Part shown: positions 904 to 21,945 of the stretch, piece after piece
Position numbering within the stretch: the stretch's first letter is position 1
Layout: each line of letters starts with the position of its first letter
Source: a virus
Virus record (IMG/VR): IMGVR_UViG_3300029822_000952
DNA: 22,043 bases
Direction: 5' to 3' (one strand)
The notes under the pieces: generated by a model
Told to the model about the DNA's origin: nothing
Databases searched by the model: none
What the model saw: only the letters and a program-made list of their open reading frames with translations
Translations under genes and position numbers: made by a program

Positions 904-1098
904 ATGGGGGGCGAGGATGGAGACCAGATGAAATCATCGTTGGAAACAGAAAAATTGCTGGAATATGTCTATCAGCGTCAGGCCGCCCTAGTTCGGCCAG
1001 ATGAACGCGATACGCATCCATTGCTGAACGAGCTGGCCGACATAATTATCGAGATAAAAGACCGAACGTTTGAGGAAATCGACCGAATGAGGCGTTAA
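904..1098 (+). CDS. Hypothetical protein, 64 aa (alternative start 928)
   Basis: TTTATAT box at 867-873 about 30 nt upstream; stop overlaps the stop of the convergent wHTH gene (TTAA 1095-1098). Confidence 0.55.
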   Translation: MGGEDGDQMKSSLETEKLLEYVYQRQAALVRPDERDTHPLLNELADIIIEIKDRTFEEIDRMRR

Positions 1099-1397: not shown

Positions 1398-1518
1398 TGG
1401 TACAGTTAAGAAGTATTGTATTCTTCTTGTCGAGTAGTATATAGAAATCAATTTATAATCTATAGCTCCAATCACCGCCGACCGTGTACCAATTGGTACT
1501 CGGTATGGAGATGAGAAA
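1398..1518. promoter_or_regulatory. Divergent promoter/operator region (lysogeny switch-like)
   Basis: AT-rich; TTTATAAT 1452-1459; perfect 14-bp palindrome GTACCAATTGGTAC 1486-1499; half-site ATTGGTAC 1396-1403; AAGAAG/CTTCTT inverted repeat 1408-1428. Confidence 0.7.
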
Positions 1519-1869
1519 ATGCAACCCGAACCACAGATTGTGAAACTACTCGTCGCCAACGGCCTCCGGCCGGCGGAGGCGAGAACGCTGGCCTGCTGGA
1601 ACGAAGATGACGACGAGCTGACCCAGCTCGACATGGAGAACATAGCTGGACTGAGGCAGCCAGAGGTTAGTCTGGCCGTCTGCGAGATGCGCCGCCGTGG
1701 CTGGCTGCGACAGATCGCCAAGCGGAAGCCCGAGCGTGGAGCACCCGTCAAGGTCTACACCCTCGCCATACCCATGCGTGACATCGTGCGCGAGATCGTG
1801 GCCGAGCGCACCAGGGAGATAGACCAGGCCCAGGAGCTGACCGTCCAGCTGCTTCAGGCGGTAGCGTGA
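1519..1869 (+). CDS. Winged-helix transcriptional regulator (TrmB/ArsR-like), 116 aa
   Basis: LTQLDMENIAGLRQPEVSLAVCEMRRRGWL...GAPVKVYTL; GGAG upstream; divergent from the 1095-1397 gene. Confidence 0.8.
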   Translation: MQPEPQIVKLLVANGLRPAEARTLACWNEDDDELTQLDMENIAGLRQPEVSLAVCEMRRRGWLRQIAKRKPERGAPVKVYTLAIPMRDIVREIVAERTREIDQAQELTVQLLQAVA

Positions 1870-2502: not shown

Positions 2503-2763
2503 ATGTCCGAGGTCAAGATCACCGCCATGCTCGACCTGGTCAAGGGCGATGCGTCCTGGGAGGAGGTCGGCCGGGACCTAGGGGCGTTCCTGGATGCCAA
2601 TACCCCGGAACTCGACCCCGCCGACGTCGTGCTGGAGGTCAGCTACATCCCCGAGGACGGCGACATCCTCCTGCGGCTGCCCGGACACATGAGCATCTGG
2701 CTCCCCAAATGGCAGCTGGAGAAGGCCATAACGATGGCGGTCCAGAAGGAGGCCGGAGTGTGA
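2503..2763 (+). CDS. Hypothetical protein, 86 aa
   Basis: GGAGGTG RBS; stop directly abuts the integrase ATG. Confidence 0.65.
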   Translation: MSEVKITAMLDLVKGDASWEEVGRDLGAFLDANTPELDPADVVLEVSYIPEDGDILLRLPGHMSIWLPKWQLEKAITMAVQKEAGV

Positions 2764-3807
2764 ATGCCGCCCTCCGAACGCAACGCTCTGGAGTTGATCG
2801 ACGAATACCTGGGGAAAAAGGTTCGTCGTGGCCGACTGAGCCAGGGAAAAGCCGACGCATACCGCGCCAGGTTGATGATCGCTCTGGACTCCCTGCGCGA
2901 CGCTGGGCTGGGCTGCACCCCGTCCACCATCGGGGAGCCGGAGATCGAGCACATACTGGACGTGACCTTCGGGCACGAACGCCCCCGCTCGAAGCGCTGG
3001 GACGTGTCGATCCTGAACGGCTACCTCAAGCACTACGGGAACAAGGTCATCGACGAAATGATGATTACCTGGCCCCAGGACGGCCGGGTGAACGTGGACT
3101 GGCTCTCATCGCAGGAAGCGGTGGCCATGCTGGAGGCCGCCCGGCCGGGCATCGAACAACTGGTCGTCCATCTGGAGCTGCGCCTATGGTTGCGTCGCAT
3201 CGAGGTCCAGCGGATGACGCCGGAGGACATCCAAGAGATGAGGATGCTCGATCCGGAGACGGAGGAGGAGTTCGACGGCTTCATCCACATCCACGGCAAG
3301 GGCCGGGCCGGCGGAAAATGGCGGACGCTGCCATACGCTCCGGAGACCAAGGACATACTGCGGGAGTACGACCGCCAGCGCGAACGGATGATCGCCAAGG
3401 CCAGGGAGATCGACCCGCAGGCACAGCTCCCGAGGGACGAGAACGGCCGGGAGGTCTACGTGATCTACCGACGCCGGGGCCGTTTGGGAGCTTACTCGAA
3501 ATCGGGCATCGACAGCATCGTGGCCAGGGTGGCCAAGAGGGCCGGGATAGCCAGGACCATCACCAATCACACGCTGCGCAGGACCGGAGCGCGGATAGCG
3601 TACTTCGCCGGCGTGCTGCTGGTGGAGATCATGGAGGGGCTGGGCCACTCGTCGGAGAAGGAGACCATCAAGTATCTCGGGCTGACCGTGAACGAGCTTT
3701 CCAGGGCGCAGGCGAAGGTGCATCAGTACCTGCAACGCGTCAAGGCGAGAATGAAGGACGGAGCGCCGCCGGTCGCCCCGTCGGAAGGGGCGAGGGTGTC
3801 GGGATGA
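2764..3807 (+). CDS. int: Tyrosine recombinase/integrase, 347 aa
   Basis: Catalytic set present: R (LWLRRIEV), K (HGKGR..GKWR), H-x-x-R (NHTLRR), LGH, Y (TIKYLG). Confidence 0.93.
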   Translation: MPPSERNALELIDEYLGKKVRRGRLSQGKADAYRARLMIALDSLRDAGLGCTPSTIGEPEIEHILDVTFGHERPRSKRWDVSILNGYLKHYGNKVIDEMMITWPQDGRVNVDWLSSQEAVAMLEAARPGIEQLVVHLELRLWLRRIEVQRMTPEDIQEMRMLDPETEEEFDGFIHIHGKGRAGGKWRTLPYAPETKDILREYDRQRERMIAKAREIDPQAQLPRDENGREVYVIYRRRGRLGAYSKSGIDSIVARVAKRAGIARTITNHTLRRTGARIAYFAGVLLVEIMEGLGHSSEKETIKYLGLTVNELSRAQAKVHQYLQRVKARMKDGAPPVAPSEGARVSG

Positions 3808-4049
3808 TTGTACAGAAGTGTTCAGGGCAAAAAAAGAAGGTAGCCAGTAAGGTGGAGTGGGCTCTGCCGGATTTGACCATCCCACCCAGACTGGAAAATC
3901 TGCAAAATGCCCCTGAAAAAACCCTAGAAAATGGCCCGAAAACTCACGCTCTCGCCGACGAAATGAAGCGGTGGGCACATAGGGCGTACATCCTCAACAG
4001 CGCCGTAGCGGCTGAGCGCCTAGTAGTCATCGAGGAGGCTGGACCATGA
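3804..4049 (+). CDS. Possible 81-aa ORF spanning the attP site
   Basis: ATGA overlap with integrase stop and ATGA overlap with the next gene; no recognisable domain. Confidence 0.4.
   Translation: MIVQKCSGQKKKVASKVEWALPDLTIPPRLENLQNAPEKTLENGPKTHALADEMKRWAHRAYILNSAVAAERLVVIEEAGP
3853..3878 (-). other. attP-like site: tRNA 3' end (T-loop, T-stem, acceptor strand)
   Basis: Minus strand reads GGTCAAATCCGGCAGAGCCCACTCCA = TCAAAT T-loop + CCGGC T-stem + AGAGCCC acceptor strand + A discriminator; 46 nt after integrase; T7 tract follows on the minus strand (3835-3829); no 5' tRNA half present. Confidence 0.75.
3891..3943. repeat. Five phased A-tracts beside attP
   Basis: A-tracts start at 3895, 3904, 3916, 3928, 3939 (spacing 9, 12, 12, 11). 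Confidence 0.6.
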
Positions 4050-5156: not shown

Positions 5157-5501
5157 GTGAAATGCCCTCTCAAGCCCGGCCTAACGTGCCGTGCGGGCCT
5201 CGCAGAGGTCGAGGGGACGCCCTGTCCCGGATGCCCGGCAGGACGCGCTAACGGCCGTCCTGCGGCCTCCGGCGACCTGCCCCTATCGCCCCCTCTAGCA
5301 GCCCTCCGGAGGCAGCTCCGGGACCGCCTCGCGGAGGTCGAAACGACCCCCCGGAGAGTGCCAAAAGTAAAGACTACGAGTAAAGACCTTGTAAAGAGCA
5401 AAAGTAAAGACTTTTTTTCGGCGTCTGGCTCCGAGGCGAGTAAAGACCTCGAAGTAAAGACCCGAGTAAAGACCCTTTACTTTGCCGGGGTGGCTCCATG
5501 A
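5157..5501 (+). CDS. Cys-rich protein (CPLKPG.C...CPGC), 114 aa; 3' half overlaps the iteron array
   Basis: GTG start after AGGTGAT; N-terminus paralogous to 13746-13922. Confidence 0.6.
   Translation: MKCPLKPGLTCRAGLAEVEGTPCPGCPAGRANGRPAASGDLPLSPPLAALRRQLRDRLAEVETTPRRVPKVKTTSKDLVKSKSKDFFSASGSEASKDLEVKTRVKTLYFAGVAP
5366..5481 (+). repeat. Iteron-like AGTAAAGAC array (putative replication origin)
   Basis: Exact copies at 5366, 5379, 5403, 5439, 5453, 5465; variant GTAAAGAG at 5391; inverted CTTTACT at 5475-5481; further copy at 5753 inside the next gene. Confidence 0.8.
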
Positions 5502-6697
5502 AGAACATCCGCCTCCACCCCACCCGCCGGAGGGTCTACGAACTGCTAGTAGACGGGGCTGCCCCGGGGGTCGGTCTTGCCCCTACCAGCATCATTGATC
5601 TGATGAACAAGGAAGGCAAGATAACACCGCAGCGGGTTTATCAGATTATCAGGGAGTTGAGGAAAGAAGGCTATGTCCGGCAGATAACGGGCTCCAGCAT
5701 GTACGTCCGTGGTCGTAAGGCCGCGATGCTGGACTATCTCATCAGCTCGGAGAGTAAAGACCTTGTAAACCCCTCTAACGGAGGGGGTCCGATTGCCCAT
5801 TATCCGAGTCAAGGGCATAATAATGGACCCGCAACCCCAATTTTTGAGACCTTCGTCCCGACCGCCGAGGCCCACGTTAACGGCCGTTACATCTACCCCG
5901 TCCTGCGCGTCGGGGAGTTATACGAGCCGTTCCGCGTCCGGGACGAGCAGGGCGAGATCTCCGAGTGCGTGGTATGGGACCCCGAGCCACGACAGCTCCG
6001 AGGCGTGACCTACTACACCGGCCGGGTGCCCATCCACGGCGGCATGACCATCCAGTATTGGCAAGGGGCCGTCGAGCAGTCCCTCCATATCTGGCCGACG
6101 CCGGTGACGCTGCTCCCGGGACGCGTCCACGAGGCCGAGGGCGACCTGGCAGCCAAGGCCCAGGACGCCGCCAACTGGCTCGGCCGCTTCGGCGGCTGGC
6201 GTCTGGGCGTGCCAAGATTTTCGAGCAACGAGGACGGCCCGGGCATCCATTACGCCTGCAATGATCCGGCCATAGTCGGCAATTTCCCCGAGGGATTCAA
6301 GCCCGACAACGGGGCCGGATACTGGCTGGACAGCACCCCGCCCCCCAGGTCCTACGAGACCACCGACGCTGAGCGCATGGAGGCCACCGTCAATTTTGCG
6401 GCCATCACCCGCGACCTCAAGCGGGGCCAGGCATCCCTCGGCCAGGGCGTCGCCGCGATGGAGGCCGCCATCGAGCGCCGCCAGCTGGAGGTGCTACAGC
6501 TCCGCTATGACGCCCTGGGCCAGCAGGCCGAGCTATGGCAGGCCATCGGCGACATGTCGGAGATACAGCTCCGCACCATCCACGCCCAGCACATCCAGGC
6601 GCACGTCGGCGGCCCAGGCCCTGGACCATCAGACCCCGCCACCGCCAGCACCACGGACAGTGACCCCGACGCCCGCAAGGGAGGCATGTACCAATGA
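5498..6697 (+). CDS. wHTH-domain protein, putative replication initiator, 399 aa
   Basis: N-terminal wHTH (ITPQRVYQIIRELRKEGYV), C-terminal coiled coil; directly downstream of the iterons and contains one. The Rep role is inferred from context only. Confidence 0.55.
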   Translation: MKNIRLHPTRRRVYELLVDGAAPGVGLAPTSIIDLMNKEGKITPQRVYQIIRELRKEGYVRQITGSSMYVRGRKAAMLDYLISSESKDLVNPSNGGGPIAHYPSQGHNNGPATPIFETFVPTAEAHVNGRYIYPVLRVGELYEPFRVRDEQGEISECVVWDPEPRQLRGVTYYTGRVPIHGGMTIQYWQGAVEQSLHIWPTPVTLLPGRVHEAEGDLAAKAQDAANWLGRFGGWRLGVPRFSSNEDGPGIHYACNDPAIVGNFPEGFKPDNGAGYWLDSTPPPRSYETTDAERMEATVNFAAITRDLKRGQASLGQGVAAMEAAIERRQLEVLQLRYDALGQQAELWQAIGDMSEIQLRTIHAQHIQAHVGGPGPGPSDPATASTTDSDPDARKGGMYQ

Positions 6698-7113: not shown

Positions 7114-7280
7114 TCGAGCTGACGCGCCGACGCTATCGCTGCCCGGACCCATGCGTCTACAAATGCGTCATTGAGATGACATCCCAGTATGTCAAAAATC
7201 CCATCCAATGCGCCTACGGTCGTGGATGGATATACGACTGGATACTGCTCGATGAGCCGGCCGGGGGTGAGCGGCGATGA
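7110..7280 (+). CDS. Cys-rich microprotein, 56 aa (paralog of 13922-14089)
   Basis: MIELTRRRYRCPDPCVYKC...C...IYDWILLDEPAGGERR. Confidence 0.7.
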   Translation: MIELTRRRYRCPDPCVYKCVIEMTSQYVKNPIQCAYGRGWIYDWILLDEPAGGERR

Positions 7281-7431
7281 TCCAGCAGGGCGAGATCCCC
7301 GACTGCTACGGTATCGAGTGCTGCGATGAGTGCGCGATCGACTGCCCATTTTACATGGACTGCGAGGCCGACAGCCGAGAGGACGAGGATGACGACTGGG
7401 TTGGCGATGGCCTGGGGGGTGAGTGAGCATG
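7259..7431 (+). repeat. 173-bp exact direct repeat, copy 1
   Basis: Identical by eye to 14454-14626 (offset 7195). Confidence 0.95.
7277..7426 (+). CDS. Acidic Cys-rich microprotein, 49 aa, copy 1
   Basis: MIQQGEIPDCYGIECCDECAIDCPFYMDCEADSREDEDDDWVGDGLGGE; RBS and ATGA coupling. Confidence 0.7.
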   Translation: MIQQGEIPDCYGIECCDECAIDCPFYMDCEADSREDEDDDWVGDGLGGE

Positions 7432-8199
7432 TGCAACTACTGGAGCTGCATCCTCCACCGCGACGGCCGCGTGCTCCATGTGCGCGATGAGGACAGCCAC
7501 GAGGCGATCGTACAGCACTACCATCTCGACGACAACCGGCTGACCGACCGCGATTTCATCCGCATCGAGATCACGCCCGGCGACGCACTGAGCCGCGATC
7601 GGGCAGATTGGAGCTATAGGGTCGATGAGCCCCGGACCCTGCCGGACTGGTACGCCAACGACACCAGGCGCTGGGACGCCGTCGTATGGGCCGAGTGGGA
7701 GCGCGTGATGTCCGAGCAGATATGGGACACGCCCTGGTATGGCCGCGTGACGACCATGCGCGACCGTCTCGCCGCCCTCCGCCCCGGAGAGGCAGCGGTA
7801 TCTAGATCCGCCGTCCGCCCCGCGCTCGAAGAGCATCGCAAGCGCCTGATGGCGCTGGACGGCGAGCAACGCCAGTGGGCCATCTCGGAGGTGCGTTTTC
7901 ACAGTCCAGCAGAGTGGGCATCGGTCAGGGACTCGGTCTGGGACTCGGTCTGGGACTCGGTCTGGGACTCGGTCTGGGACTCGGTCTGGGACTCGGTCTG
8001 GGACTCGATCTGGGCATCGGTCAGGGCATCGGTCTGGGCATCGGTCTGGGCATCGGTCAGGGACTCGGTGGTCCATGAGGATGATGCCAACTACGGCCTG
8101 CCGCTGCTCGACATGCTGGCGGCCGGATGTGTGCTCTACGGTATCGATGACGATGGTGTCGCCCACGTGATCATGGTCGGCAAGGATGGAGGTGAGTGA
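7429..8199 (+). CDS. Tetrapeptide (W/R-D/A-S-V) repeat protein, 256 aa
   Basis: ATG after GGGGGTGAGTGAGC; MCNYWSCIL...DSHE N-terminus of a kind seen in phage repeat proteins; 13 tetrapeptide repeats. Confidence 0.75.
   Translation: MCNYWSCILHRDGRVLHVRDEDSHEAIVQHYHLDDNRLTDRDFIRIEITPGDALSRDRADWSYRVDEPRTLPDWYANDTRRWDAVVWAEWERVMSEQIWDTPWYGRVTTMRDRLAALRPGEAAVSRSAVRPALEEHRKRLMALDGEQRQWAISEVRFHSPAEWASVRDSVWDSVWDSVWDSVWDSVWDSVWDSIWASVRASVWASVWASVRDSVVHEDDANYGLPLLDMLAAGCVLYGIDDDGVAHVIMVGKDGGE
7915..8070 (+). repeat. 12-bp tandem repeat, 13 units (consensus TGGGACTCGGTC)
   Basis: WASV RDSV (WDSV)x5 WDSI WASV RASV WASV WASV RDSV. Confidence 0.95.
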
Positions 8200-10033: not shown

Positions 10034-10055
10034 CTACAATTAGAGGTTGAGCAAG

Positions 10056-10355
10056 ATGGTGACCAAGAAGAAAATTGAGGAAATGTATGCGAGCAAGAAC
10101 GAGGGCCACGTCCCCGCAGCCGTGATGAGGCAGCTGGACAAATACGAGGAGGACGCCAAGGGCATCCACACGACGGACATGTCCATGCTGTTGCAGGACG
10201 CCCCTGCGGTGCGGTATCTGGAGGATTACGAGGTCGTCAGGGAGATCACCGATGGCATCCAGAGGGAGTACATGGACCTAGGACGCATCATGTACATGAG
10301 CGAGGGCCTGCTGCGCGATCTCAACGGCATGGGCGACCTGCCCGGCGGCATGTGA
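10056..10355 (+). CDS. Hypothetical protein, 99 aa (alternative TTG start 10047)
   Basis: GAGGTTGA RBS; first gene after the internal promoter. Confidence 0.65.
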   Translation: MVTKKKIEEMYASKNEGHVPAAVMRQLDKYEEDAKGIHTTDMSMLLQDAPAVRYLEDYEVVREITDGIQREYMDLGRIMYMSEGLLRDLNGMGDLPGGM

Positions 10356-10360
10356 TTCCG

Positions 10361-10444
10361 ATGAAGGCGACCATCGGCCTGGAGCTGTTCGGCGAGGTAC
10401 AGGGGAAGCTGATGGAGATAATAGAGCAGGGGCCATCGCAATGA
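10361..10444 (+). pseudogene. 27-aa ORF carrying a duplicate of the 5' end of the 10590 gene
   Basis: MKATIGLELFG then diverges (EVQGKLMEIIEQGPSQ). Confidence 0.5.
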
Positions 10445-10593
10445 GCATCACCATACACCGCTGCAAGCGATGCGGGCATGAGTGGGCGCAGCGCGGCGAG
10501 AGCAAGCCGAAGACATGCCCCAACCCCGCCTGCCGCTCCCCCTATTGGGACAAGGAGCGCACCAGGCCGCGTCCGGAGGCCCGGAAGGCATGA
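10441..10593 (+). CDS. Zinc-ribbon microprotein, 50 aa
   Basis: HRCKRCGHEW...KTCPNPACRSPYWD, a common archaeal/viral zinc-ribbon pattern; ATGA coupling at both ends. Confidence 0.75.
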   Translation: MSITIHRCKRCGHEWAQRGESKPKTCPNPACRSPYWDKERTRPRPEARKA

Positions 10594-11006
10594 AGGCGAC
10601 CATCGGCCTGGAGCTGTTCGGCGACAACAATCGGCAACGTCTTGAAGCTGAGAGGCGGATGATTAATGAGCTATCGCCCGGCTTAGGCGACCAAGTCATC
10701 GGCCAGGACCCCGACAGCATATGGATTGCTGAGATCATTGGCTACAACGACCGCTCTGAATACCAACGCCGGTACCTGCGAGGGCGACGGGATTATACCA
10801 AGGCCAACTCCAAAGGCTCTCGGGGCGTTTTTATGTGGTACATCCTGGAGGCCGGAAAGACCTACGAGGTAAGTTCCAGAGCATCATGGTCGCGCATGGA
10901 CCGATATTTCTGCATCGTGTCTCCAGAGGGCGACATCATAAGGATAAGCAAAGAGGAGGTGGACGCATGGCTGAGCCTGCTTCATGGAAGCGAGAACTGG
11001 GCATAG
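10590..11006 (+). CDS. Conserved hypothetical viral protein upstream of ibrAB, 138 aa
   Basis: DYTKANSKGSRGV...GKTYEV...RYFC motif; overlaps the IbrA start by 40 nt. Confidence 0.7.
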   Translation: MKATIGLELFGDNNRQRLEAERRMINELSPGLGDQVIGQDPDSIWIAEIIGYNDRSEYQRRYLRGRRDYTKANSKGSRGVFMWYILEAGKTYEVSSRASWSRMDRYFCIVSPEGDIIRISKEEVDAWLSLLHGSENWA

Positions 11007-12181
11007 ACGTTCTGACCGCCGCCAGGCAGCGCATCGCCTGGGTGTTCGACAATTTCCCACGCATATACGTCTCGTTCAGCGCTGGAAAGGACAGCACGGT
11101 CATGCTGCACCTGGTGGCCGAGGAGGCGCGTCGCCGCGGCAAGAAGATCGGCGTGCTTCTCGTCGATCTCGAAGGGCAGTACAAACTGACGATCGATCAC
11201 GGGCTGAGCATGTTCCGCGAGTACGAGGACGTGATCGAGCCGTTCTGGGTCTCGCTCCCTCTGCTGCTGCGCAATGCCGTGTCGCAGTACCAGCCCCGCT
11301 GGACGTGCTGGGACCCCGAGGCCCGCAAGGACTGGATACGCCAGCCTCCGGAGATCGCCATCACCGACGAGCGGTTCTTTCCGTTCTTCCGGCGCGGCAT
11401 GGAGTTCGAGGAGTTCGTTCCCGAGTTCGGCCACTGGTACGGGGGCGGCAAGCTGACCGCCTGCTTCGTGGGCATCCGCACCGACGAATCGCTCAACCGC
11501 TGGCGGACCATCGCCTCCTCGACCAAGCAGCGCATGGACGGTAAGGGCTACACCACCTGGATCGGAGAGGCGCTCTACAACGTCTATCCGATCTACGACT
11601 GGCGGACCGAGGACATCTGGCGCTATCACGGCAAATATCCCGACAGGCAGCATAACCAGCTCTACGACCGCATGCACCAGGCGGGGCTGACGGTGCATCA
11701 GATGCGCATCTGCCAGCCGTACGGTGACGACCAGCGCAAGGGACTATGGCTGTTTCACATCATCGAGCCGGAGACGTGGTCGCGCGTCGTCGCCCGCGTC
11801 AACGGCGCGAACCAGGGCGCGCTGTACGCTCAGGAGAACGGCAACATCCTGGGCATCAACAAGGTCACGCTGCCGCCCGGGCATACATGGCAGAGCTTCT
11901 CGATATTGCTTCTGCAATCGATGCCGGAGCGGACGGCGGACCATTACAAGGACAAGATCGCGGTGTTCCTGCACTGGTGGTCTCAGAGGGGCTACCCGGA
12001 CGGCATACCGGACGACGGGGAGATGAGCAAGGACGCCCCGAGCTGGAAGCGCATCTGTAAATCGTTGCTCCGCAACGACTACTGGTGCAAGGGGCTGTCG
12101 TTCACGCAGACAAGCTCAGCGGCATACGAGCGCTACAAGAAGATGATGAAGGTGAGGCGGAATAAATGGAACCTGATCTAG
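10967..12181 (+). CDS. ibrA: IbrA-like PAPS-reductase/PP-loop protein with DUF3440-like C-terminus, 404 aa
   Basis: YVSFSAGKDS PP-loop, GIRTDESLNR, YPIYDW, MRICQPYG, WKRICK.LL.ND motifs; GAGGAGGTG RBS before ATG 10967. Confidence 0.88.
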   Translation: MAEPASWKRELGIDVLTAARQRIAWVFDNFPRIYVSFSAGKDSTVMLHLVAEEARRRGKKIGVLLVDLEGQYKLTIDHGLSMFREYEDVIEPFWVSLPLLLRNAVSQYQPRWTCWDPEARKDWIRQPPEIAITDERFFPFFRRGMEFEEFVPEFGHWYGGGKLTACFVGIRTDESLNRWRTIASSTKQRMDGKGYTTWIGEALYNVYPIYDWRTEDIWRYHGKYPDRQHNQLYDRMHQAGLTVHQMRICQPYGDDQRKGLWLFHIIEPETWSRVVARVNGANQGALYAQENGNILGINKVTLPPGHTWQSFSILLLQSMPERTADHYKDKIAVFLHWWSQRGYPDGIPDDGEMSKDAPSWKRICKSLLRNDYWCKGLSFTQTSSAAYERYKKMMKVRRNKWNLI

Positions 12182-12687
12182 AATGGACGGCGAGGCATCC
12201 GGTGTCCCACGTTCGGTGGGTGCCGGCCGGGCAGGTGCACGCGAACGACTACAACCCCAATTCCGTGGCTCCGCCGGAGATGAGGCTGCTGCGCATCAGC
12301 ATCGAGGAGGACGGGTTCACGCAGCCCATCGTGGTGTGGCAGGTTGCCGATAACGAGTATGAGGTCGTGGACGGGTTCCACCGCCACCTCGTCGGCCGAG
12401 AGCTCGGAATGACCCATCTGCCCGTCGTGGTGGTCAACCAGGACCGCTCCGACCGAGGCGACAGGATCGCGTCGACCATCCGGCATAATCGGGCCAGGGG
12501 CAAGCACCAGGTCGGCGCCATGAGCGACATCGTGCAGGAACTGGCGCGACGCAACTGGAGCAACGAGAAGATAGGGCGGGAGCTCGGCATGGAGCCCGAC
12601 GAAGTCCTGCGGCTCAAGCAGATCTCCGGGCTGGCGGAACTGTTCGCCGATGAGGAGTTCAGCGAGGCATGGGATGTCGATGTGTGA
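12166..12687 (+). CDS. ibrB: IbrB-like ParB/Srx-domain protein, 173 aa
   Basis: ANDYNPN.V...SI.EDGFTQPIV...VVDGFHR...STIRHNRARG; overlaps the IbrA stop by 16 nt. Confidence 0.88.
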   Translation: MEPDLEWTARHPVSHVRWVPAGQVHANDYNPNSVAPPEMRLLRISIEEDGFTQPIVVWQVADNEYEVVDGFHRHLVGRELGMTHLPVVVVNQDRSDRGDRIASTIRHNRARGKHQVGAMSDIVQELARRNWSNEKIGRELGMEPDEVLRLKQISGLAELFADEEFSEAWDVDV

Positions 12688-12717: not shown

Positions 12718-12993
12718 ATGAGAGCCGCCCTATACGCCAGGGTCTCGACCGACGACCACGACCAGAACCCCGAGACCCAGCTCCGCGTGCTGCGGAAGAT
12801 GGCCGAGGCCCGAGGATACACGATCTTCCGGGAGTACATCGATGAAGGATGGTCGGGCGCTGACCCAGGCCGCCCTGGCATGATAAAGCTCCGCAAGGAC
12901 GCCAAGGCCCACCGCTTCGACGTGCTGCTGGCCCAGGACACCATGGATCGTCTGGTCAGGATGCGGGCCGCCGTCGAGGGGAGGAGAGCATGA
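12718..12993 (+). pseudogene. Truncated serine recombinase (resolvase catalytic domain only), 91 aa
   Basis: LYARVST catalytic Ser, SG...RPG, DRLVR, then ends without helix E or a DNA-binding domain. Confidence 0.75.
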
Positions 12994-14089: not shown

Positions 14090-14475
14090 TGGCCCGTAAG
14101 AGAACTTGTTCCTGGTGCGGTCCAGGCGACCAATCCGGACCCAATAACGGGTTCTACTACCTGTGCGAGGAATGCTACGACGAATGGGACTATTACATGC
14201 ACATAGGGAGGCTGGCCGTCAAGGAGTTGAAGCTGACCCACCCAGGCGCGTACCGGAGCCGGATGGAGGACATGATCAGGTCCCATTCCGACTTGTTCAG
14301 GCGGTTCGGCAATCTCAAGACTATCCAGACAGCGCTAGATAAGGGCGATATGGGCCCGATGGTGGAAGCCCTCCCGAAGGAGTTCGCAATGAAGCATTAC
14401 CCGGAGCATTTCGACGAGGCGGGGAACTGTAAATCGAACGTCTTGGCCCGTAAGGCCGGGGGTGAGCGGCGATGA
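14089..14475 (+). CDS. Zinc-finger protein, 128 aa
   Basis: CSWCG...YLCEECY; ends in GGERR. Confidence 0.7.
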   Translation: MARKRTCSWCGPGDQSGPNNGFYYLCEECYDEWDYYMHIGRLAVKELKLTHPGAYRSRMEDMIRSHSDLFRRFGNLKTIQTALDKGDMGPMVEALPKEFAMKHYPEHFDEAGNCKSNVLARKAGGERR

Positions 14476-14626
14476 TCCAGCAGGGCGAGATCCCCGACTG
14501 CTACGGTATCGAGTGCTGCGATGAGTGCGCGATCGACTGCCCATTTTACATGGACTGCGAGGCCGACAGCCGAGAGGACGAGGATGACGACTGGGTTGGC
14601 GATGGCCTGGGGGGTGAGTGAGCATG
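14454..14626 (+). repeat. 173-bp exact direct repeat, copy 2
   Basis: Identical by eye to 7259-7431. Confidence 0.95.
14472..14621 (+). CDS. Acidic Cys-rich microprotein, 49 aa, copy 2
   Basis: Identical to 7277-7426. Confidence 0.7.
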   Translation: MIQQGEIPDCYGIECCDECAIDCPFYMDCEADSREDEDDDWVGDGLGGE

Positions 14627-15050: not shown

Positions 15051-15289
15051 CTCGCAAGATCTCCGCCGACGTCCGGATCTGCAACGGCTCCCGGCCCGGC
15101 ACCGTCCGCGTGGTGGTCGAGCTCCCGGAGGACCTCGGCGGCATGCTCGACCAACTCGCTATCATTGAGAAGGTGCCCAAGAAGGTCACGATCCGCAAGG
15201 CCCTGGAGGACCTGCGTGAGGAGATCCGAGAGCACGGCATCGGCATCCTGTTCGAGGATGGCGAGCAGGGAGAGCCAGGCGCTCTCTAA
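15047..15289 (+). CDS. Ribbon-helix-helix (CopG-like) regulator with apparent ATA start, 80 aa
   Basis: VRVVVELPEDLGGMLDQLAIIEKVPKKVTIRKALEDL; GGAGGTGA at 15033-15040; in-frame TGA at 15038 excludes an upstream ATG. Confidence 0.6.
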   Translation: MTRKISADVRICNGSRPGTVRVVVELPEDLGGMLDQLAIIEKVPKKVTIRKALEDLREEIREHGIGILFEDGEQGEPGAL

Positions 15290-15320
15290 ACATCTTTCTC
15301 ATCTCTTTTTCTATAAAAAG
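15290..15320 (+). promoter_or_regulatory. Pyrimidine terminator of the accessory region overlapping the TATA box of the membrane-protein operon
   Basis: TCTTTCTCATCTCTTTTTC then TATAAAAA 15312-15319; CTTTTT-CTAT-AAAAAG inverted repeat 15305-15320. Confidence 0.6.
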
Positions 15321-15377: not shown

Positions 15378-16007
15378 ATGTCTCCCAAGAGCATCTCCAC
15401 CGACAAGAGGGGCGCGACCCCGATCGCCGCCATCGCCGCCGTCATTGCGACGATCGCGCTATCTTCCGCCCTCCTACTCTTGGCCGCCGCTCCCGCGAGC
15501 GCGGCCGACGTGAGCTCTACGTCAATGAGCGCCGACGCGACCGCATACACCGTAGCCCCGGGCGGCGAGGTCATCATCAAGATCTCCGACATGCCCGACA
15601 ATACTGGAATCGCCCAGGTGAACTTCGAGGACGCTGACGGCTTCAACGCCGACGAATGGTTCACCGCGACCTCCACCGAGAAGGAACTCGCGGCCACTAT
15701 CAAGATCGTCGCCGACGAGGAGACTCCGCTCGGCGATTACATCGTTGAGATCGTCCCGGCCGGCAACGCCTCCCAGGCCATCGAGGTCGAGCTGACCGTG
15801 CAGCACTCCGTCGCCCAGGTCCTGAGCGGCAACGCCATGTACCTCGGCGCCGGCATCGGCCTGATCGTGGTCGCCGGGCTCATGGGCCAGGCCATCCGCA
15901 ACAAGAAGGCCAAGCGCATCACCAAGCCCCTGAGCACCCTGATGATCGTCGCCGGCGTGGCCAGCCTCGCGTGGGTCGCCTACCAGACCGTTGTCGTGCT
16001 CATCTGA
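15378..16007 (+). CDS. Membrane-anchored putative virion protein: signal peptide, Ig-like beta domain, two C-terminal TM helices, about 209 aa (alternative TTG start 15360)
   Basis: Hydrophobic N-terminus ending PASAA; YTVAPGGEV...ATIKIV...LGDYIVEIV; TM-RNKKAKR-TM. Confidence 0.75.
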   Translation: MSPKSISTDKRGATPIAAIAAVIATIALSSALLLLAAAPASAADVSSTSMSADATAYTVAPGGEVIIKISDMPDNTGIAQVNFEDADGFNADEWFTATSTEKELAATIKIVADEETPLGDYIVEIVPAGNASQAIEVELTVQHSVAQVLSGNAMYLGAGIGLIVVAGLMGQAIRNKKAKRITKPLSTLMIVAGVASLAWVAYQTVVVLI

Positions 16008-16016
16008 GGTGATCTC

Positions 16017-18344
16017 GTGAACACCGTCGCACGCAAAACCCTCTCGATCATGATGGTCATAGGCCTCGTGGTCGGGGGGCTCCCCCTATTTTTTGCCGCC
16101 ACCGACAACGCCGAGGCAGCCGTAGGAGTCTGGGAGAAGCGCACGTCAGCCATGTCCGTCATGCACTCCAACGGCAAGCTCACGGTCGATGTGTCAACGT
16201 TCGAGGATGAGGGCAACAAGCCTATCCAGGGCTATACCCTGCTGCTCAAATGGGACCAATGCCGCAAGGACCTCAACCCACTGAGCGGATTCTGGCGCAC
16301 CATACGCTCGCCGCAAACGGCCACCATCACCACTGACGCCAAGGGCGAGGCCGAGTACAAGTTCAGTCTGGGTAACGGAGTCTGGACCGAGAATCTATGG
16401 ATCTACGGCTCCAGCGAGGGGTGGCAGATCATCGAGTATTTCCTGGGGAATATTGCCTCCACCAACATCCATCTCGACATCCAGACCCAGGCATCGATGG
16501 CCACGCAGCACGCTATCCAGCGCGCCGACACGCTAGGACTCATCCATGACTGGTACGAATTGGCACCCGCGGCGTTATCTCCGAGCGAAGGTGGAGCACC
16601 AATCAAACATATAGACGTCTGGGCCAGCCAACAGTATGTTGGTGCTACTCAGATTACTATGAACTGGCTAATGGAAACGAATGGCCATCAATCAAATGTT
16701 GTGACCGCTGTACCAGGCACATCATCCGCTGGCTCGATAAAGTATTCCAATATCAAAAATTATTATGTGGATGAGTTGAATTTATTACCTGCAGCGAAGG
16801 GCGGGAAAACTCAATATTATGCATTCGAAGACTGGATGTGTTATGGGGAGGTATGGTTCTCAGTATATAAGCCGTCAACTGGAGTAACAGATATGCGGAA
16901 TTACCGCACAACGCTCTATGCCGACGATGGGAAAAATAACATTACCGTTTGCGTTCTTGAACCACATGCCCCTCAGACCAAGATCCCGATGGTTAAGTAT
17001 GACCTAGCCCCGGGAATGTATAATTTCATTGTTAAGATCGAGAATCTCTATACGGGGGAGACCTATGCCGCCTCTGCTTACATCAGTTTATACACCGGCT
17101 CTAGTGCGGACCTCGTCCTAGGCGACCTCGATGAGCTCGATGTTTTGCCAACTATAGATGTGTGGTCCGATACAAGTACTGCTGTCACCATAAATCTAAA
17201 CGGACGATGGGGAGAATGGCAGACATCCGGATATTCTACGACCATTACCGATCAGGATCTCGTCCCAGTGGCCGCGCATATCAGGGGCATCTATCCGCTC
17301 GTAATCAGCAATCCGAGATGGGACAAGACACCCATCGCCGAAAATCTGAATGGTTTTAAATTTGATGTATACAACATACACCCAGAGCAGACCATAGAGA
17401 CGGTAAACCTCGCCCTTACTACAGATAACGGAACTCAGGTATGGGCCACGACTGTCGGTTCACAAGCCTATCCTACATGGACTGACGCATCACAGTTCAC
17501 GACGGTCCACCTAACTCACATATCCATGCCGGCCGAACCACGCAAATTGTACACCCTGATAATATCGTGCGGAGGTGCTGTCACCGAGATCCCCGTGGTG
17601 TTCTACCCGGCCGAGATGGATCCTGATGTGATCTACGAGCCTAAGAAGGACCTCGATGAAATCATCAAGGACTACGGAACGGTCAACGCTGCCGCCCTCA
17701 AGGCCTATCACGACTGGGCCGTGAGCATGCAGCCCAGGATCAAGGTCATAAAGGCCGACGTGCAGAACTACACCAAGCTCTTCGAGCAGCGCCTCGCCGT
17801 GGACAACCTGGCCCTCTCCGACGCCGCCGCCACGCGTGGCCTGGAGCTGATCACCGCGCTCAAGGAGATCTGCAAGGGCGATGGCTCGGACACCAGTATC
17901 GGCGAGCTCACATCCCATGCCCAGGGCATCTGGTCATCCTACCAGGCCGCGCTGCTGTACCGGGAGACCGCTATATCCTACGAGGCCGGCCAGACCGCGT
18001 TCGGCAATTCGACCGCCCTTGATGCCTGGTACCAGGACCTCGTGAGCAAGCGGATCACGGTCGGCCTGCAGGAGCAAAAACAGGGAGATGACCCCAACAG
18101 CGTCGCTGTCTGGGTCGGCGTCGCCGTCGCCCTGGTGGTCGGCGGCCTGGTGATGTACCTCTGCTGGAAATACATCATCCCGCCGCTCAAGCGCGTCATG
18201 CCCAAGGGCCGCAGCCCCCGCCTCAGGACGATCCGCGCCGTGACGCCGGTGGTCGTGACCATCGTGCTCGCCGTTATCATCGCCCTGGTGGCATTCCTCG
18301 CCACCTGGAACATAGCCCTGAGCATCGAGGCCGCTCTGAGGTAA
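16017..18344 (+). CDS. Large membrane-anchored surface protein, putative spike/receptor-binding or fusion protein, 775 aa
   Basis: GAGGTGA RBS; signal peptide ending AEA; beta-rich ectodomain, then helical/coiled-coil stalk, then two TM helices with a basic loop. The spike role is inferred from architecture and gene order. Confidence 0.65.
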   Translation: MNTVARKTLSIMMVIGLVVGGLPLFFAATDNAEAAVGVWEKRTSAMSVMHSNGKLTVDVSTFEDEGNKPIQGYTLLLKWDQCRKDLNPLSGFWRTIRSPQTATITTDAKGEAEYKFSLGNGVWTENLWIYGSSEGWQIIEYFLGNIASTNIHLDIQTQASMATQHAIQRADTLGLIHDWYELAPAALSPSEGGAPIKHIDVWASQQYVGATQITMNWLMETNGHQSNVVTAVPGTSSAGSIKYSNIKNYYVDELNLLPAAKGGKTQYYAFEDWMCYGEVWFSVYKPSTGVTDMRNYRTTLYADDGKNNITVCVLEPHAPQTKIPMVKYDLAPGMYNFIVKIENLYTGETYAASAYISLYTGSSADLVLGDLDELDVLPTIDVWSDTSTAVTINLNGRWGEWQTSGYSTTITDQDLVPVAAHIRGIYPLVISNPRWDKTPIAENLNGFKFDVYNIHPEQTIETVNLALTTDNGTQVWATTVGSQAYPTWTDASQFTTVHLTHISMPAEPRKLYTLIISCGGAVTEIPVVFYPAEMDPDVIYEPKKDLDEIIKDYGTVNAAALKAYHDWAVSMQPRIKVIKADVQNYTKLFEQRLAVDNLALSDAAATRGLELITALKEICKGDGSDTSIGELTSHAQGIWSSYQAALLYRETAISYEAGQTAFGNSTALDAWYQDLVSKRITVGLQEQKQGDDPNSVAVWVGVAVALVVGGLVMYLCWKYIIPPLKRVMPKGRSPRLRTIRAVTPVVVTIVLAVIIALVAFLATWNIALSIEAALR

Positions 18345-18345
18345 C

Positions 18346-18645
18346 ATGGCTAAGGCTGTAGTCCTGCCCAAACCCTTTACAATTCTCTTATTTTTCCTAG
18401 GGCTAGCCATTGCCCTGGCGGCGGTCGATCACGTCCTTGCGATAGTGGCCACTCTCGTGGACCAGCTCACCGGCCGGGTGGGTTCCATGGACCCCACCGC
18501 CTCCATCTGGGGCATCATCGCCGCCGTCGTGCTCGTTATCATCCTGAGCAAGAGCGCGAAGTCTATCTCCACGTTCCTCGGCGGCTTCGTGGCCGGCTGC
18601 CTCCTGAGATTCGTCCTGATGGCCGGAGAGGTTGGATTATTATGA
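18346..18645 (+). CDS. Small multi-pass membrane protein, 99 aa
   Basis: Three hydrophobic segments; GAGGT RBS. Confidence 0.8.
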   Translation: MAKAVVLPKPFTILLFFLGLAIALAAVDHVLAIVATLVDQLTGRVGSMDPTASIWGIIAAVVLVIILSKSAKSISTFLGGFVAGCLLRFVLMAGEVGLL

Positions 18646-20201
18646 TCACTCGCACCCGCATCCTAGCGGCAGCCCTCGCCCTGGTCGCCCTCATGACGCT
18701 GCTCATGAGCTCCACCAGCGCTCTCGCCGCCGACCCCGACACCGAGATCCGGTACTATCGCATGTCCGTCTACACCGGCGCTGACGCCAACGGGACGGCC
18801 GTCAAGGTCCTCGCCCCGCAGCAGGACATGAGCTATCCGCGCAACTGCACGCTCTACATGGTCGTAAGCAACTACGGCGACAGCATCCTTGAGGTCCGGG
18901 CGGGCGGCCAGGTCCTCGGCACCGTCAGCCCTCGGGACATGACTATGATCCAGTTCGCCACTCCGGCCGGCACCCAGTCCACCTATCCCCTGGAGTTCTA
19001 CTCAGGCGTTCACCGTTACCTGGCAATCTCCTACACCATGACTTCGGTATCGTTCGACATATACAACGAGATGGACATGCCCGGCCTCGAGGAGATGAAA
19101 AAGGACTATGAGGACAGGCTCAATAAGGAGCGGGCATTGAGGGAGCGTAACACGACCATCGAGGTCGACCCCGATCTCATCAAGGCCCTCGAGGCCGCCC
19201 GGACCCCCATCATTCTCTCTGCCGGACTGGCCGTTATTGGCATATTCCTCGCCTTCAGCGTCAAATGGGGCACGCGTCTTCTCAACCCGCTCAACGGCAT
19301 CAACTACATCGTGCTCTTCGTGGCGGCCATCGCGCTGGGCCTGTTTGATGGCTACAGCGGCCTCCTCAAGGGCAACCTGCTCTATTTCCTCCCGTTCGCC
19401 GCTGCCTACATGGGCACCTATTGGCTCTACAGGATCCCCACGACCCACACAGCCAGATTGGACATCAGGGAGCACCGCCTGACCATCGGCCAGCGCGTGT
19501 TCTATGAGGATGCAGAGGACGGGGTGCAATGTGAGGCTCCCCAAGACTGGCGCCGCGTCCTTGCGAGATGGATACGCGGCGACCGCTGCATAGTACAGGC
19601 CAACGGCTCCCTAATCCCCGATTGGCAGGTAAACGACCTCGACACCGGCGAGGAGTCGCCCCTGCTGCTGATCAACTCGGAGAGCATCAAGGAGGCCACG
19701 CAGAAGCCCGTCGAGGAGCAGTCCCTCAAGGAGAGGCTACTAGGAGCTCCGGGCGACACCCGCAAGCAGCTAAACCTCGCCAAGGGCGGGGCATTCTCGC
19801 ACGTCGACTACCTCGTAAACCCGGACGGCTGGACCAAGATAATGAACGAAAATCAGAGGCAGTTCCAGGCCATACACCGCCTGCTGAGCAGCATCCCCAC
19901 CCTTGCCCGCTCCCTCTCGGAGGAGATCATCGAGTACATCCACGGCTACCGGGCCGAGGAGCCGACCAGGTTGTTCCGCACGTTCATCATTCGCACCCTG
20001 CAGCGCGACCCTATGGCCATGATAGATGGAGACATATGGGAGAGATATCAGGAGTTCAAGGACGATAGGGCAAAGCTCGGCCACCTGGTCGCCGAGCTCG
20101 ATGATGAGATCAAATCGCAGGACAGGCCGCTCGACCGCGAGGACCTGCGAGCCCCTGACCGCAATGCCGGCCACATGGGCAAGGGGGGAAGCCAACAATG
20201 A
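18642..20201 (+). CDS. Membrane protein: signal peptide, ectodomain, coiled coil, about 3 TM helices, cytoplasmic domain, 519 aa
   Basis: MITRTRILAAALALVALMTLLMSSTSALA; LEEMKKDYEDRLNKER coil; hydrophobic segments around aa 190-262. Confidence 0.8.
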   Translation: MITRTRILAAALALVALMTLLMSSTSALAADPDTEIRYYRMSVYTGADANGTAVKVLAPQQDMSYPRNCTLYMVVSNYGDSILEVRAGGQVLGTVSPRDMTMIQFATPAGTQSTYPLEFYSGVHRYLAISYTMTSVSFDIYNEMDMPGLEEMKKDYEDRLNKERALRERNTTIEVDPDLIKALEAARTPIILSAGLAVIGIFLAFSVKWGTRLLNPLNGINYIVLFVAAIALGLFDGYSGLLKGNLLYFLPFAAAYMGTYWLYRIPTTHTARLDIREHRLTIGQRVFYEDAEDGVQCEAPQDWRRVLARWIRGDRCIVQANGSLIPDWQVNDLDTGEESPLLLINSESIKEATQKPVEEQSLKERLLGAPGDTRKQLNLAKGGAFSHVDYLVNPDGWTKIMNENQRQFQAIHRLLSSIPTLARSLSEEIIEYIHGYRAEEPTRLFRTFIIRTLQRDPMAMIDGDIWERYQEFKDDRAKLGHLVAELDDEIKSQDRPLDREDLRAPDRNAGHMGKGGSQQ

Positions 20202-20614
20202 AGGAGGAGGAGTATCGGGAGAACCTAGCGCACTTCCTGATCAACGAGGTCAAACTAGCATTGGGCCTGCAGGAGCAATACGAGCCCTACCGCGCTCGGG
20301 AGGACTACCTGACCAGGTACTTCCCAACCCTCGATGAGCGGGCGAGGAAGGCAGTCCTGTACGAGCTCAAGGAGGAGGCGAGCCGCAAGGGCACTGCCTC
20401 TATGGCCCGGGTGCTGTCCGACTCTCCCGAGGTCCTGGCCGGCGCGTTTTCGAACCTCCGCAGGATGCAGACCAAGCCCACGCAGAAAGCCATCATCTCC
20501 CGCACCCCGCCCCGCTCGGCCCGGGAGATAATGGACGACCAATTCATCCTGGAACGCGAGCCGGATGAGGAGGAGCCCGACGCCGACACACTGGAGGAGG
20601 TCGAGACCCAATGA
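20198..20614 (+). CDS. Hypothetical helical protein with acidic C-terminus, 138 aa
   Basis: ATGA coupling at both ends. Confidence 0.75.
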   Translation: MKEEEYRENLAHFLINEVKLALGLQEQYEPYRAREDYLTRYFPTLDERARKAVLYELKEEASRKGTASMARVLSDSPEVLAGAFSNLRRMQTKPTQKAIISRTPPRSAREIMDDQFILEREPDEEEPDADTLEEVETQ

Positions 20615-21945
20615 TCCACGTCCGGGAATCAATTTTCGAGGTATGCCGGACCAAAACGCATAGGGATCCCGGGAAGAAATTGAAGGATTTGACTGAGAGA
20701 GTGCTCCGGGATCTCACCCCGCCCCTCGACTCCGAGATGTTCCCAAAGGACCGCATTGACCTGATCACCGTGGCCGCCTTCGGCCAGCCTGGCTCTGGCA
20801 AAACAACCCTTATCGAGCACCTGGCCGGCCACTTTGCCAAGGTCTATGACGACCAGACCAACATCGTCGGCATACGGGGTTCTCGATTCTCGGACCTGGC
20901 AGCCAAGATGGACGACCGCCCCGTCCAGGTGCTCGTGGTCGATGACGCCAAGGCCATGTCGAGAGGTGGGTTCAAAAATATCGATGATATGAATGAACTG
21001 GACGACATACGGCACCGATATAAGCAGATCCGAGTAACGGCCGGCCATCCCCCGAGCGGCTATATAGTAGCCATCCACGTCAAGCAGCGCTATAAGGACC
21101 TCGACATCAAATTCCGTCAGGCCCACTACAGATTTTTTAAGACCACAGCTGGACCCGACGACAAATGGGATATGATCTCGCAAATCGGCCCGGAAGCCTA
21201 TGGATTCCTGGAGCGCATCATGCGCCGCATCAATGAGCTTCGGGACCAAACTGCCAAGGGGGAGTGTATCGTGACCGTGGATTGGATTCGTGGGAGCGGC
21301 CGCTTTTACTCTAGTCTCCCCGAGAGATCTAACGTTAACTGGCTCCGCGTCGAGGACTCCGGCGAGCTCCACCGCACCGCCGACCTCGCTCCCTCGGCCA
21401 TCATCGAGGAGGGCGGGGCCTTCGTGGTCGATACCTCCCCCATCCTCGACCTGATCAGACAGGACGGGGGCGAGTGGCCCCTGAAGGTCAGGGTGTTCGA
21501 GGCCTACCAGGGCGCCGCTTCTCAGTCCCAGGTGGCCGAGCAATACAAGATCTCCCAGGGCTCGGTGAGCAATTACAGCAAGGAGGTCAAGGGCATGATA
21601 TCCAAGATTGTCGGGGAAGCCTATGAGAAATGGGCGGCTAAGCAATGGGAGAAGGAGCTCGGAGTCAAGAAGGTCGAGAGGGACGGGAGCAAGGGCGAGC
21701 CGGACATCATGGTCTATCACGACTCCGGCCGCGTGACCGTAGTGAGCTGCAAATGCTATTACGACAACAAAACCACGAGCATCCCGATTAAGGCGATCGA
21801 GCCCGAGCTCATCAAAGCGCGGGAACTCGCAGCGGCCGGATTATTAGAGCGCCTAGTGGTCGACTTTAATAATATCGCCAAAAAATCCAGACAACTCCGG
21901 GGCATCGATCCTGAGCATCACGATAGCGTTATCACGTTCAGGTAA
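20611..21945 (+). CDS. P-loop ATPase (Zot/pI/A32-like, FtsK-HerA clade candidate) fused to HTH and PD-(D/E)xK-like nuclease, 444 aa
   Basis: Walker A GQPGSGKT, Walker B VLVVDD, HVKQ...LD..FR motif; SQSQVAEQYKISQGSVSNY HTH; GEPDIMV...VSCK. Confidence 0.75.
   Translation: MIHVRESIFEVCRTKTHRDPGKKLKDLTERVLRDLTPPLDSEMFPKDRIDLITVAAFGQPGSGKTTLIEHLAGHFAKVYDDQTNIVGIRGSRFSDLAAKMDDRPVQVLVVDDAKAMSRGGFKNIDDMNELDDIRHRYKQIRVTAGHPPSGYIVAIHVKQRYKDLDIKFRQAHYRFFKTTAGPDDKWDMISQIGPEAYGFLERIMRRINELRDQTAKGECIVTVDWIRGSGRFYSSLPERSNVNWLRVEDSGELHRTADLAPSAIIEEGGAFVVDTSPILDLIRQDGGEWPLKVRVFEAYQGAASQSQVAEQYKISQGSVSNYSKEVKGMISKIVGEAYEKWAAKQWEKELGVKKVERDGSKGEPDIMVYHDSGRVTVVSCKCYYDNKTTSIPIKAIEPELIKARELAAAGLLERLVVDFNNIAKKSRQLRGIDPEHHDSVITFR

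Follow-up and report, generated by a model that had tools for sequence, protein, structure and literature searches.

The viral sequence IMGVR_UViG_3300029822_000952, a stretch of 22,043 bp with ~60% guanine plus cytosine (GC) that is analysed here in full and called the window, represents a circular DNA element of Methanomassiliicoccus, small and temperate, that integrates into a transfer RNA (tRNA) gene and has a minimal size of 14-15 kb, the present copy measuring 22 kb. We are inclined, with modest confidence, to read its gene block at 15378-21945 as the envelope and egress-entry module of a non-lytic, vesicle-like virus, for which we infer both particle formation and the role of every protein. 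This reading draws on the kinship with published pleomorphic provirus loci, on an ATPase in common with a real spherical virus, on the head-and-stalk pattern of variation in a protein of 775 amino acids (aa), on the small genome and on the library scans of the window's proteins, in which no conjugation-type translocase, ATPase or relaxase was recognised. Judged from two homologous genes and synteny, the element is related to the pleomorphic proviruses published for Methanomassiliicoccales, which are still unclassified, and it is most simply read as a separate new lineage in which the VP4-like fusogen has been replaced by the unrelated-looking 775-aa protein. To our knowledge, hardly any archaea other than halophiles and a small number of hyperthermophiles have yielded non-tailed enveloped viruses, and in methanogens there are predicted proviruses only.

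The block holds six plus-strand open reading frames (ORFs), separated by 9, 1, -4, -4 and -4 nucleotides (nt), negative values being overlaps. A module in which four membrane proteins are accompanied by one small soluble protein and a terminal P-loop ATPase had been predicted from the sequence, and both the ORFs and their hydropathy bear it out; the start assigned at 15378 to the first gene also agrees with the alignment of relatives. Directly upstream lies a 59-aa ORF without a Pfam match, whose product may be a small ribbon-helix-helix-like regulator. Among seven block-spanning loci, which come from independent samples, the order of the six genes and of the 59-aa ORF was kept throughout at 33-94% protein identity, except that the 99-aa gene was not found as a separate gene in one of them (L005), and conservation of six genes in order across seven loci means that the block is more than a chance arrangement. 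The contigs of one RNA-seq run span the entire block in one piece, which can neither prove a single transcript nor exclude DNA carry-over, and an RNA-seq library of a study other than that of the likely source sample represents the module near-fully in its contigs, lending slight support to an envelope module. The six proteins gave generic weak P-loop matches and nothing else in Pfam, PHROGs and NCBIfam, and no capsid, portal, terminase or tail protein was recognised in the module with these libraries, as had been noted before, or with Pfam among the other ORFs of the window that were tested.

The ATPase profile (A2) matched 23 of 260 Methanomassiliicoccales genomes, and twelve of the positive loci were fetched for comparison of gene order. 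The ATPase ends, in 11 of the 12, a module composed of a protein of 610-730 aa anchored at both termini, a membrane protein and a soluble protein of ~150-200 aa. The large proteins of all 11 loci have an N-terminal and two C-terminal transmembrane (TM) segments and form one family (A7); several loci contain extra large anchored proteins, and in four a 3-TM protein of ~100-130 aa precedes the large one. The supplement of Baquero et al. 2024 gives UniProt R9T6T6, R9T4L7 and R9T7P5, with others, as VP4-like fusogens of Methanomassiliicoccales pleomorphic viruses (PMC10919331), and the N-terminal sequences of these three recur exactly in L035, L039 and L040, in the large protein of each locus. Baquero et al. 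2024 (PMC10919331) took the corresponding proviruses, vir422-447, from Medvedeva et al. 2023. Like the element, these proviruses are integrated in hosts of the same order and encode a homologous nucleoside triphosphatase (NTPase; phmmer E 1e-8 to 1e-47) with a homologous polytopic membrane protein upstream of it, in the order large anchored protein, membrane protein, small soluble protein and NTPase, some with a small 3-TM protein beside the large one. The homologous membrane protein was matched by the hidden Markov model (HMM) of the 519-aa protein (A3) at the syntenic position in five fetched loci (L030, E 1e-12; L031, 2e-8; L035, 4e-7; L038 and L039, ~1e-4 to 2.5e-4), and on these profile matches the 519-aa protein is homologous to the gene lying 5' of the ATPase block in the published proviruses. 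The element differs from them in that its large protein does not belong to A7, its 215-aa protein has no counterpart there and its close family is tiny. An A7 protein stands in place of the 775-aa gene in L030 and L031, the outgroup loci closest to the element (ATPase E 1e-40 to 1e-47), for which the simplest reading is that the surface protein was replaced in the lineage of the element.

One of the genomes (G026), a single 1.93-Mb contig, carries three copies of the ATPase-ended module (L035, L039 and L040), each with its own A7 protein and with extra large anchored proteins; exact matches to the N-termini of UniProt R9T..._METII entries indicate that it is Methanomassiliicoccus intestinalis. 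When the 260 genomes were searched with phrog_2231, the VP4 profile, four weak matches (E ~1e-4) were obtained in frames of 458-508 aa. These were rejected as the published VP4-like proteins, which are A7 proteins of 610-641 aa (supplement, PMC10919331), and the frames show no relation either to the window or to the loci with the ATPase.

The ATPase has a conserved core in its N-terminal ~200 aa and a C-terminal half conserved in close relatives only. Eight relatives are 62-93% identical to it, and in their contigs, too, the 59-aa ORF is followed by the six genes in unchanged order. The core was aligned by hhalign with gp32 of Aeropyrum globular virus 1 (AGV1) at 97% probability and E 9e-11 over 150 columns, with several motifs in common beyond Walker A, the only exception among hhalign comparisons of module profiles with single proteins of pT26-2, AvPV1, HRPV-1 and AGV1, none of which was otherwise significant. 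AGV1 is an isolated temperate, spherical, tail-less virus of 60 nm with an 18-kb circular double-stranded DNA genome (bioRxiv 10.1101/2021.04.21.440749). As in the element, its homologous ATPase core is encoded last in a multi-gene operon and a pilin-like protein is present, whereas no other gene is in common, the host is a hyperthermophilic crenarchaeon and the ATPase lacks the C-terminal half. The VP8 profile phrog_1979 did not match the ATPase (control, HRPV-1 VP8, 9e-97), although it is a weak criterion, as it misses the NTPase of AvPV1 too; the hhalign alignment with HRPV-1 VP8 runs from Walker A to Walker B only, at 58% probability. Residues ~355-444 of the ATPase (21700-21945) contain E363-P364-D365 and S379-C380-K381, invariant in 9/9 homologues and reminiscent of a PD-(D/E)xK nuclease motif.

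By hydropathy, the 775-aa protein has an N-terminal signal or TM segment and two C-terminal TM segments at residues 695-713 and 745-763, and it consists of a conserved N-domain, a hypervariable AT-rich middle and a conserved beta-sandwich followed by a four-helix bundle. In the alignment of its eight homologues (A1) the ends are conserved and columns 200-450 are almost without conserved columns; such a hypervariable, low-GC middle between conserved ends is the pattern expected of a receptor-binding protein, and we regard the 775-aa protein as a candidate host-recognition or fusion protein. Its family is small: the A1 profile found ten matches, all of the family itself, among 1.84 billion representative proteins, including one short relative of 401 aa on a 2.3-kb contig, and the close family occurs in 1/260 Methanomassiliicoccales genomes. 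Likewise, tblastn of the 775-aa protein against a phage collection gave no match, neither the profiles A1, A2 and A7 nor HRPV-1 VP4 retrieved anything useful in sequence searches of the PDB, and the ESM Atlas returned nothing usable, or generic GH2-type beta-sandwiches, in a feature search with the 775- and 519-aa proteins and a shape search with the second of the models described below.

Structural comparison of AlphaFold2 (AF2) models pointed elsewhere. With the full-length model, the top PDB match in Foldseek was 2WB7, the protein t26-6p of the Thermococcus plasmid pT26-2 (E 1.2e-8; runner-up, E 3.6e-5). A second model, of residues 395-692 computed from 13 sequences, reached a predicted local distance difference test score (pLDDT) of 72 and a predicted template modelling score of 0.71; it shows a beta-sandwich and then four long helices, and its sole Foldseek match below 1e-3 was again 2WB7 (E 3.8e-6; runner-up, E 1.7e-3). 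2WB7 was the best structural match with two models and two programs, the lower-ranked VIA matches covering a single domain, either the beta-sandwich or the helices, so that the fold of t26-6p, by which the pT26-2 family may be recognised, is found in the model of the 775-aa protein. The two proteins are also similarly long (739 and 775 aa); both begin with hydrophobic segments, have two TM segments beyond the helical bundle and carry an (E/Q)AGD motif in its last helix. Sequence methods are blind to this resemblance, since the Pfam domains of t26-6p (PF22265, PF20984 and PF22092) did not match the 775-aa protein at E <= 0.1 and hhalign of A1 against the t26-6p family (A6) gave a non-significant 0.5% probability; from the models, homology to t26-6p is likely but unproven.

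A further resemblance was found between A7 and the t26-6p family, which hhalign aligned at 73% probability (E 3e-5), and at low stringency in colinear fashion over the whole length, with controls at 0.2-0.3%; the three best matches of the t26-6p HMM among 866 ORFs were also A7 proteins. This constitutes a possible remote link, at the level of sequence profiles, between a plasmid-family protein and viral fusogens. That t26-6p, the 775-aa protein and the Methanomassiliicoccales VP4-like proteins all diverged within a single superfamily of surface or fusion proteins anchored in the membrane is a tentative idea, which we hold to be rather doubtful. N-terminal glycine-zipper matches are common to several A7 and t26-6p proteins. 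In pT26-2 itself (L014), residues 309-377 of t26-14p (10037-11338) match the terminase large subunit profile phrog_2666 (E 4.6e-9), a match that would fit a packaging-type role of this 'plasmid' core.

Regarding the smaller proteins of the module, the 215-aa protein has an N-terminal hydrophobic signal or TM segment, a conserved ectodomain of ~110 aa and two C-terminal TM segments, according to hydropathy and to its alignment (A4), in which identities are 47-79% and the relatives place the start at 15378. It had no family match in Pfam or PHROGs and no homologue in the distant Methanomassiliicoccales loci, and it occupies the position of the VP3-like protein in pleolipoviruses. The 99-aa protein is 43-57% identical in five relatives. 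For the 519-aa protein, hydropathy indicates a signal peptide, an ectodomain of ~150 aa, two to three TM segments at 189-238 and a conserved tail of ~260 aa without TM segments. In most distant loci a soluble ORF of 147-188 aa takes the position of the 138-aa protein, and no sequence homology was detected between the 138-aa protein and these positional equivalents.

The arrangement of the module is that of pleolipoviruses, namely a small membrane protein, a spike, conserved ORFs and an NTPase, as compared with the maps of HRPV-1 and AvPV1. Members of Pleolipoviridae and Thalassapleoviridae (HRPV-1, AvPV1) resemble the element in genome size class (7-18 kb), circularity and temperate lifestyle, and AvPV1 gp04-gp10 comprise a small membrane protein, an anchored spike, a small ORF, a membrane protein of ~520-550 aa, an ORF of ~125-140 aa and an NTPase. 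They differ in that the pleolipovirus spike has a single anchor, as opposed to the two C-terminal TM segments of the 775-aa protein, and in that neither of their VP4 and VP8 profiles (phrog_2231 and phrog_1979) has a match in the module.

In the mechanism that we propose, the 215-, 775-, 99- and 519-aa proteins would insert into the host membrane, the 775-aa protein being anchored through its two C-terminal helices. Its variable receptor-binding region would sit on a conserved stalk of beta-sandwich and four-helix bundle and mediate attachment, perhaps fusion. The NTPase would recruit or process the circular genome at the membrane, acting with the 138-aa protein and with the 519-aa protein through its cytoplasmic tail, and the genome would leave the cell without lysis in a host-derived lipid vesicle.

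A number of observations weigh against an envelope module. The element is known here from its genes alone, and the Methanomassiliicoccales proviruses that bridge it to known viruses are themselves predicted viruses only. Outside the close family, homologues can be detected by sequence for only 2/6 genes of the module, and no relative was found when the IMG/VR viral contigs were scanned with the ATPase alignment. A VP4-type fusogen is the hallmark of the lineage, and the 775-aa protein had no match to phrog_2231 at E <= 0.1, whereas the positive controls HRPV-1 VP4 and AvPV1 gp06 scored 3e-126 and 1e-30; because the same profile, at E <= 0.01, also misses the published Methanomassiliicoccales VP4-like proteins of A7, its silence is weak evidence. 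The probabilities given by hhalign were 0.8-1.6% for A1 against A7 and <1% for A1 against AvPV1 gp05 and gp06, the A1 HMM found no A7 protein, and phmmer gave no link between A1 and A7. The AF2 model of the whole protein is of poor quality (mean pLDDT 55) but confident for residues 420-660. Lastly, the elements that encode t26-6p are regarded as plasmids for which a DNA or protein transfer function has been proposed and no virions are known (PMC6972569). The original prediction of a divergent pleomorphic-type virus accordingly stands in large part: the homology of the ATPase and the 519-aa protein, the gene order and the three loci with published VP4-like proteins support it, while the VP4-type fusogen went undetected. 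That the 775-aa protein is a VP4/VP5 fusogen of pleolipovirus type was not supported, given the lack of a VP4 profile match and of similarity to A7, with t26-6p as the best structure; HRPV VP5 (V-shaped fold, PDB 6QGL/6QGI), against which a structural check had been suggested, was absent among the matches listed in all four structural searches, the N-terminal half of the protein being poorly modelled at full length. The outcomes that had been named beforehand as speaking against a viral module did not occur either, there being no match to a type IV secretion system or S-layer and the operon not being core chromosomal.

The block may instead encode a DNA or protein transfer or secretion apparatus of an integrative plasmid of the pT26-2 type, that is, an envelope complex for ATPase-driven transfer that forms no particle. 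Badel et al. proposed a transfer system for the pT26-2 core, in a family reported only from Thermococcales and Methanococcales (PMC6972569). The clearly separated structural match to t26-6p and the design that it has in common with the 775-aa protein fit this explanation, yet the t26-6p domains and profile fail to find that protein by sequence, and the other six proteins of the core (t26-5p, 6p, 7p, 11p, 13p, 14p and 15p including t26-6p itself) are without a detectable counterpart, module profiles and proteins of the window matching no pT26-2 ORF. A run of membrane-protein genes ending in an ATPase of ~430 aa is found in pT26-2 as well, but of this ATPase, t26-14p, only Walker A is in common with that of the element. 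The lack of a relative in the IMG/VR scan would also suit a plasmid, whereas no VirB4-, TraG- or FtsK-type translocase or relaxase was recognised, the hosts belong to a different phylum from Methanomassiliicoccus, the integrase of the element is not of the split SSV type found in pT26-2, and the function of the pT26-2 core is hypothetical, the core being also discussed as virus-derived. We consider a transfer apparatus unlikely.

It is quite improbable, in our estimation, that the element is a vesicle-disseminated plasmid similar to pR1SE, whose membrane proteins load extracellular vesicles of the host with no dedicated entry machinery. Membrane proteins with one NTPase, no recognised capsid gene and a small circular integrative replicon would all be expected of such a plasmid, which differs from a vesicle-like virus mostly by name; the conserved stalk and hypervariable head of the 775-aa protein, together with the genes in common with published pleomorphic provirus loci, argue for specific host recognition. 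A similarly low probability is assigned to the 775-aa protein being a VP4 fusogen diverged beyond recognition, which would make the element a plain member of the pleolipovirus-related assemblage. Its position and topology equal those of the VP4-like proteins of L030 and L031, and VP4 proteins are extremely divergent, to the extent that HRPV-1 VP4 misses the solved VP5 chains by phmmer and phrog_2231 misses A7. No sequence, profile or structural search that was run links it to VP4 or VP5, however, and the chain from A7 through its suggestive match to the t26-6p family to the structure of the 775-aa protein is an indirect one of weak links.

The nature of the element as a replicon follows from its relatives. 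L008 and L009, contigs of 15,463 and 15,441 bp, represent one genome in circularly permuted form, and the first and last bases of the window map ~110 bp apart in L005, so the window is a circular genome or a permutation of one. L002 is integrated, in a 294-kb contig with host-type genes adjoining, and L003 and L013 belong to a metagenome-assembled genome labelled 'uncultured Methanomassiliicoccus sp.', a Thermoplasmata methanogen, in agreement with the Thermoplasmata-like host originally proposed. The temperate lifestyle proposed with it was supported by a tyrosine integrase, a tRNA-type attP, integrated relatives and circular forms (Table 1). The contigs of runs X1 and X3 (the former the probable source run, the latter RNA-seq, from another study) break at 3876 and run on for 19 nt into the rest of the tRNA T-arm, which is taken as the integrated form; no tRNA was found by searching the relatives' loci and the att core of the window is absent from them, therefore their integration sites differ. 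An ORF of 446 aa at 2709-4049 was not accepted as a gene, since the integrase domain lies in the frame that overlaps it. The gene of the 399-aa helix-turn-helix (HTH) protein is the only further gene conserved in all relatives, and its product is a candidate replication or maintenance protein. The sequence occurs in metagenome runs from fermentation, mud and sludge, including fermentation pit-mud.

Table 1 Features of the window and the evidence on which they were assigned.
Feature	Position	Strand	Evidence
Archaeal type IV pilin-like gene	212-730	+	Pfam Pilin_N, E 1.2e-11
Tyrosine integrase	2764-3807	+	Pfam Phage_integrase, E 1.1e-7
attP core, copy of tRNA 3' end (T-loop to acceptor stem)	3847-3876	-	Sequence reading; 3' of integrase
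399-aa protein with N-terminal HTH	5498-6697	+	Weak HTH_20 match; tblastn 31-57% identity, all loci
59-aa ORF	15110-15289	+	Directly 5' of module; tblastn 66-88% identity, 7/7 loci
Candidate module promoter, TATA-like box TTTTTCTATAAAAAGA	~15303-15320	+	Seen directly in sequence, just 5' of block
Small membrane protein gene	15360/15378-16007	+	215 aa from 15360, ~209 aa from conserved start 15378
775-aa surface protein gene	16017-18344	+	ORF, hydropathy, alignment A1, AF2 models
Hypervariable low-GC centre of 775-aa gene	16617-17217	+	~Residues 200-400, boundaries approximate; GC 0.48-0.53 vs 0.62 in flanks; pLDDT <50
Conserved membrane-proximal ectodomain of 775-aa protein	17199-18092	+	Residues 395-692; beta-sandwich then four long helices, like the two C-terminal t26-6p domains
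99-aa protein gene	18346-18645	+	Hydropathy: three TM segments
519-aa membrane protein gene	18642-20201	+	Hydropathy, alignment A3
138-aa acidic soluble protein gene	20198-20614	+	Hydropathy: no TM segment
444-aa P-loop NTPase gene	20611-21945	+	Last gene of operon; Walker A GQPGSGKT

Outside the module, the pilin-like gene comes after the ATPase gene across the circular junction, has the same position in L002 and L003, and has no assembly genes nearby; its product weakly matches AGV1 gp19 (AGV1 10355-10780; phmmer E 1.2e-5), probably via the N-terminal helix. Beyond it from the ATPase, a convergent pair at 904-1098 (plus strand, 64 aa) and 1095-1751 (minus strand, 218 aa) is common to L031 (E 3.5e-11 and 5e-22) and may be a conserved regulatory or immunity pair. 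An exact direct repeat of 173 bp (7259-7431 and 14454-14626) flanks a 7.2-kb block. Contigs of runs X2 and X3, from two other studies, connect 7280 with 14459 through 144 letters of other sequence, which makes the block accessory and the minimal genome ~14.8 kb. Within this block, 10835-12687 contains a PAPS-reductase/DUF3440 gene (E 9e-36) overlapping a ParB_N gene (E 1.5e-9), an IbrA/IbrB-like pair absent from all relatives fetched. The ORF at 7423-8199 (258 aa, without family match) contains at 7891-8093 13 tandem 12-nt units (TGGGACTCGGTC-like), which form a four-residue repeat. A 91-aa ORF at 12718-12993 has an N-terminal resolvase domain only (Pfam E 7.6e-16) and looks like a remnant, longer matching ORFs being present in L030 (229 aa) and L040 (222 aa).

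Pleolipovirus-related proviruses of Methanomassiliicoccales were already known as a kind of element; apparently undescribed are the present lineage, the 775-aa protein and its structural tie to t26-6p, and we found no paper that names pT26-2 and Methanomassiliicoccales together. In the pit-mud and sludge communities where the element occurs, Methanomassiliicoccus takes part in forming methane. Within the provirus assemblage, one surface protein appears to be exchangeable for another that differs greatly from it, with the NTPase and the membrane scaffold retained, which makes the 775-aa protein the likely determinant of host range. As far as we know, the structure of t26-6p has remained an orphan from 2009 onwards, and no function is known for the conserved core of its plasmid family. 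Its tie in fold to the 775-aa protein yields a testable hypothesis for the pT26-2 core, namely particle formation and entry and not conjugation. If the superfamily considered above were real, the conserved pT26-2 core would be an envelope and entry module of the pleomorphic-virus type, pT26-2 elements would represent either cryptic viruses with an envelope or replicons carried by vesicles, and the window would be the first bridge between them and the pleomorphic viruses.

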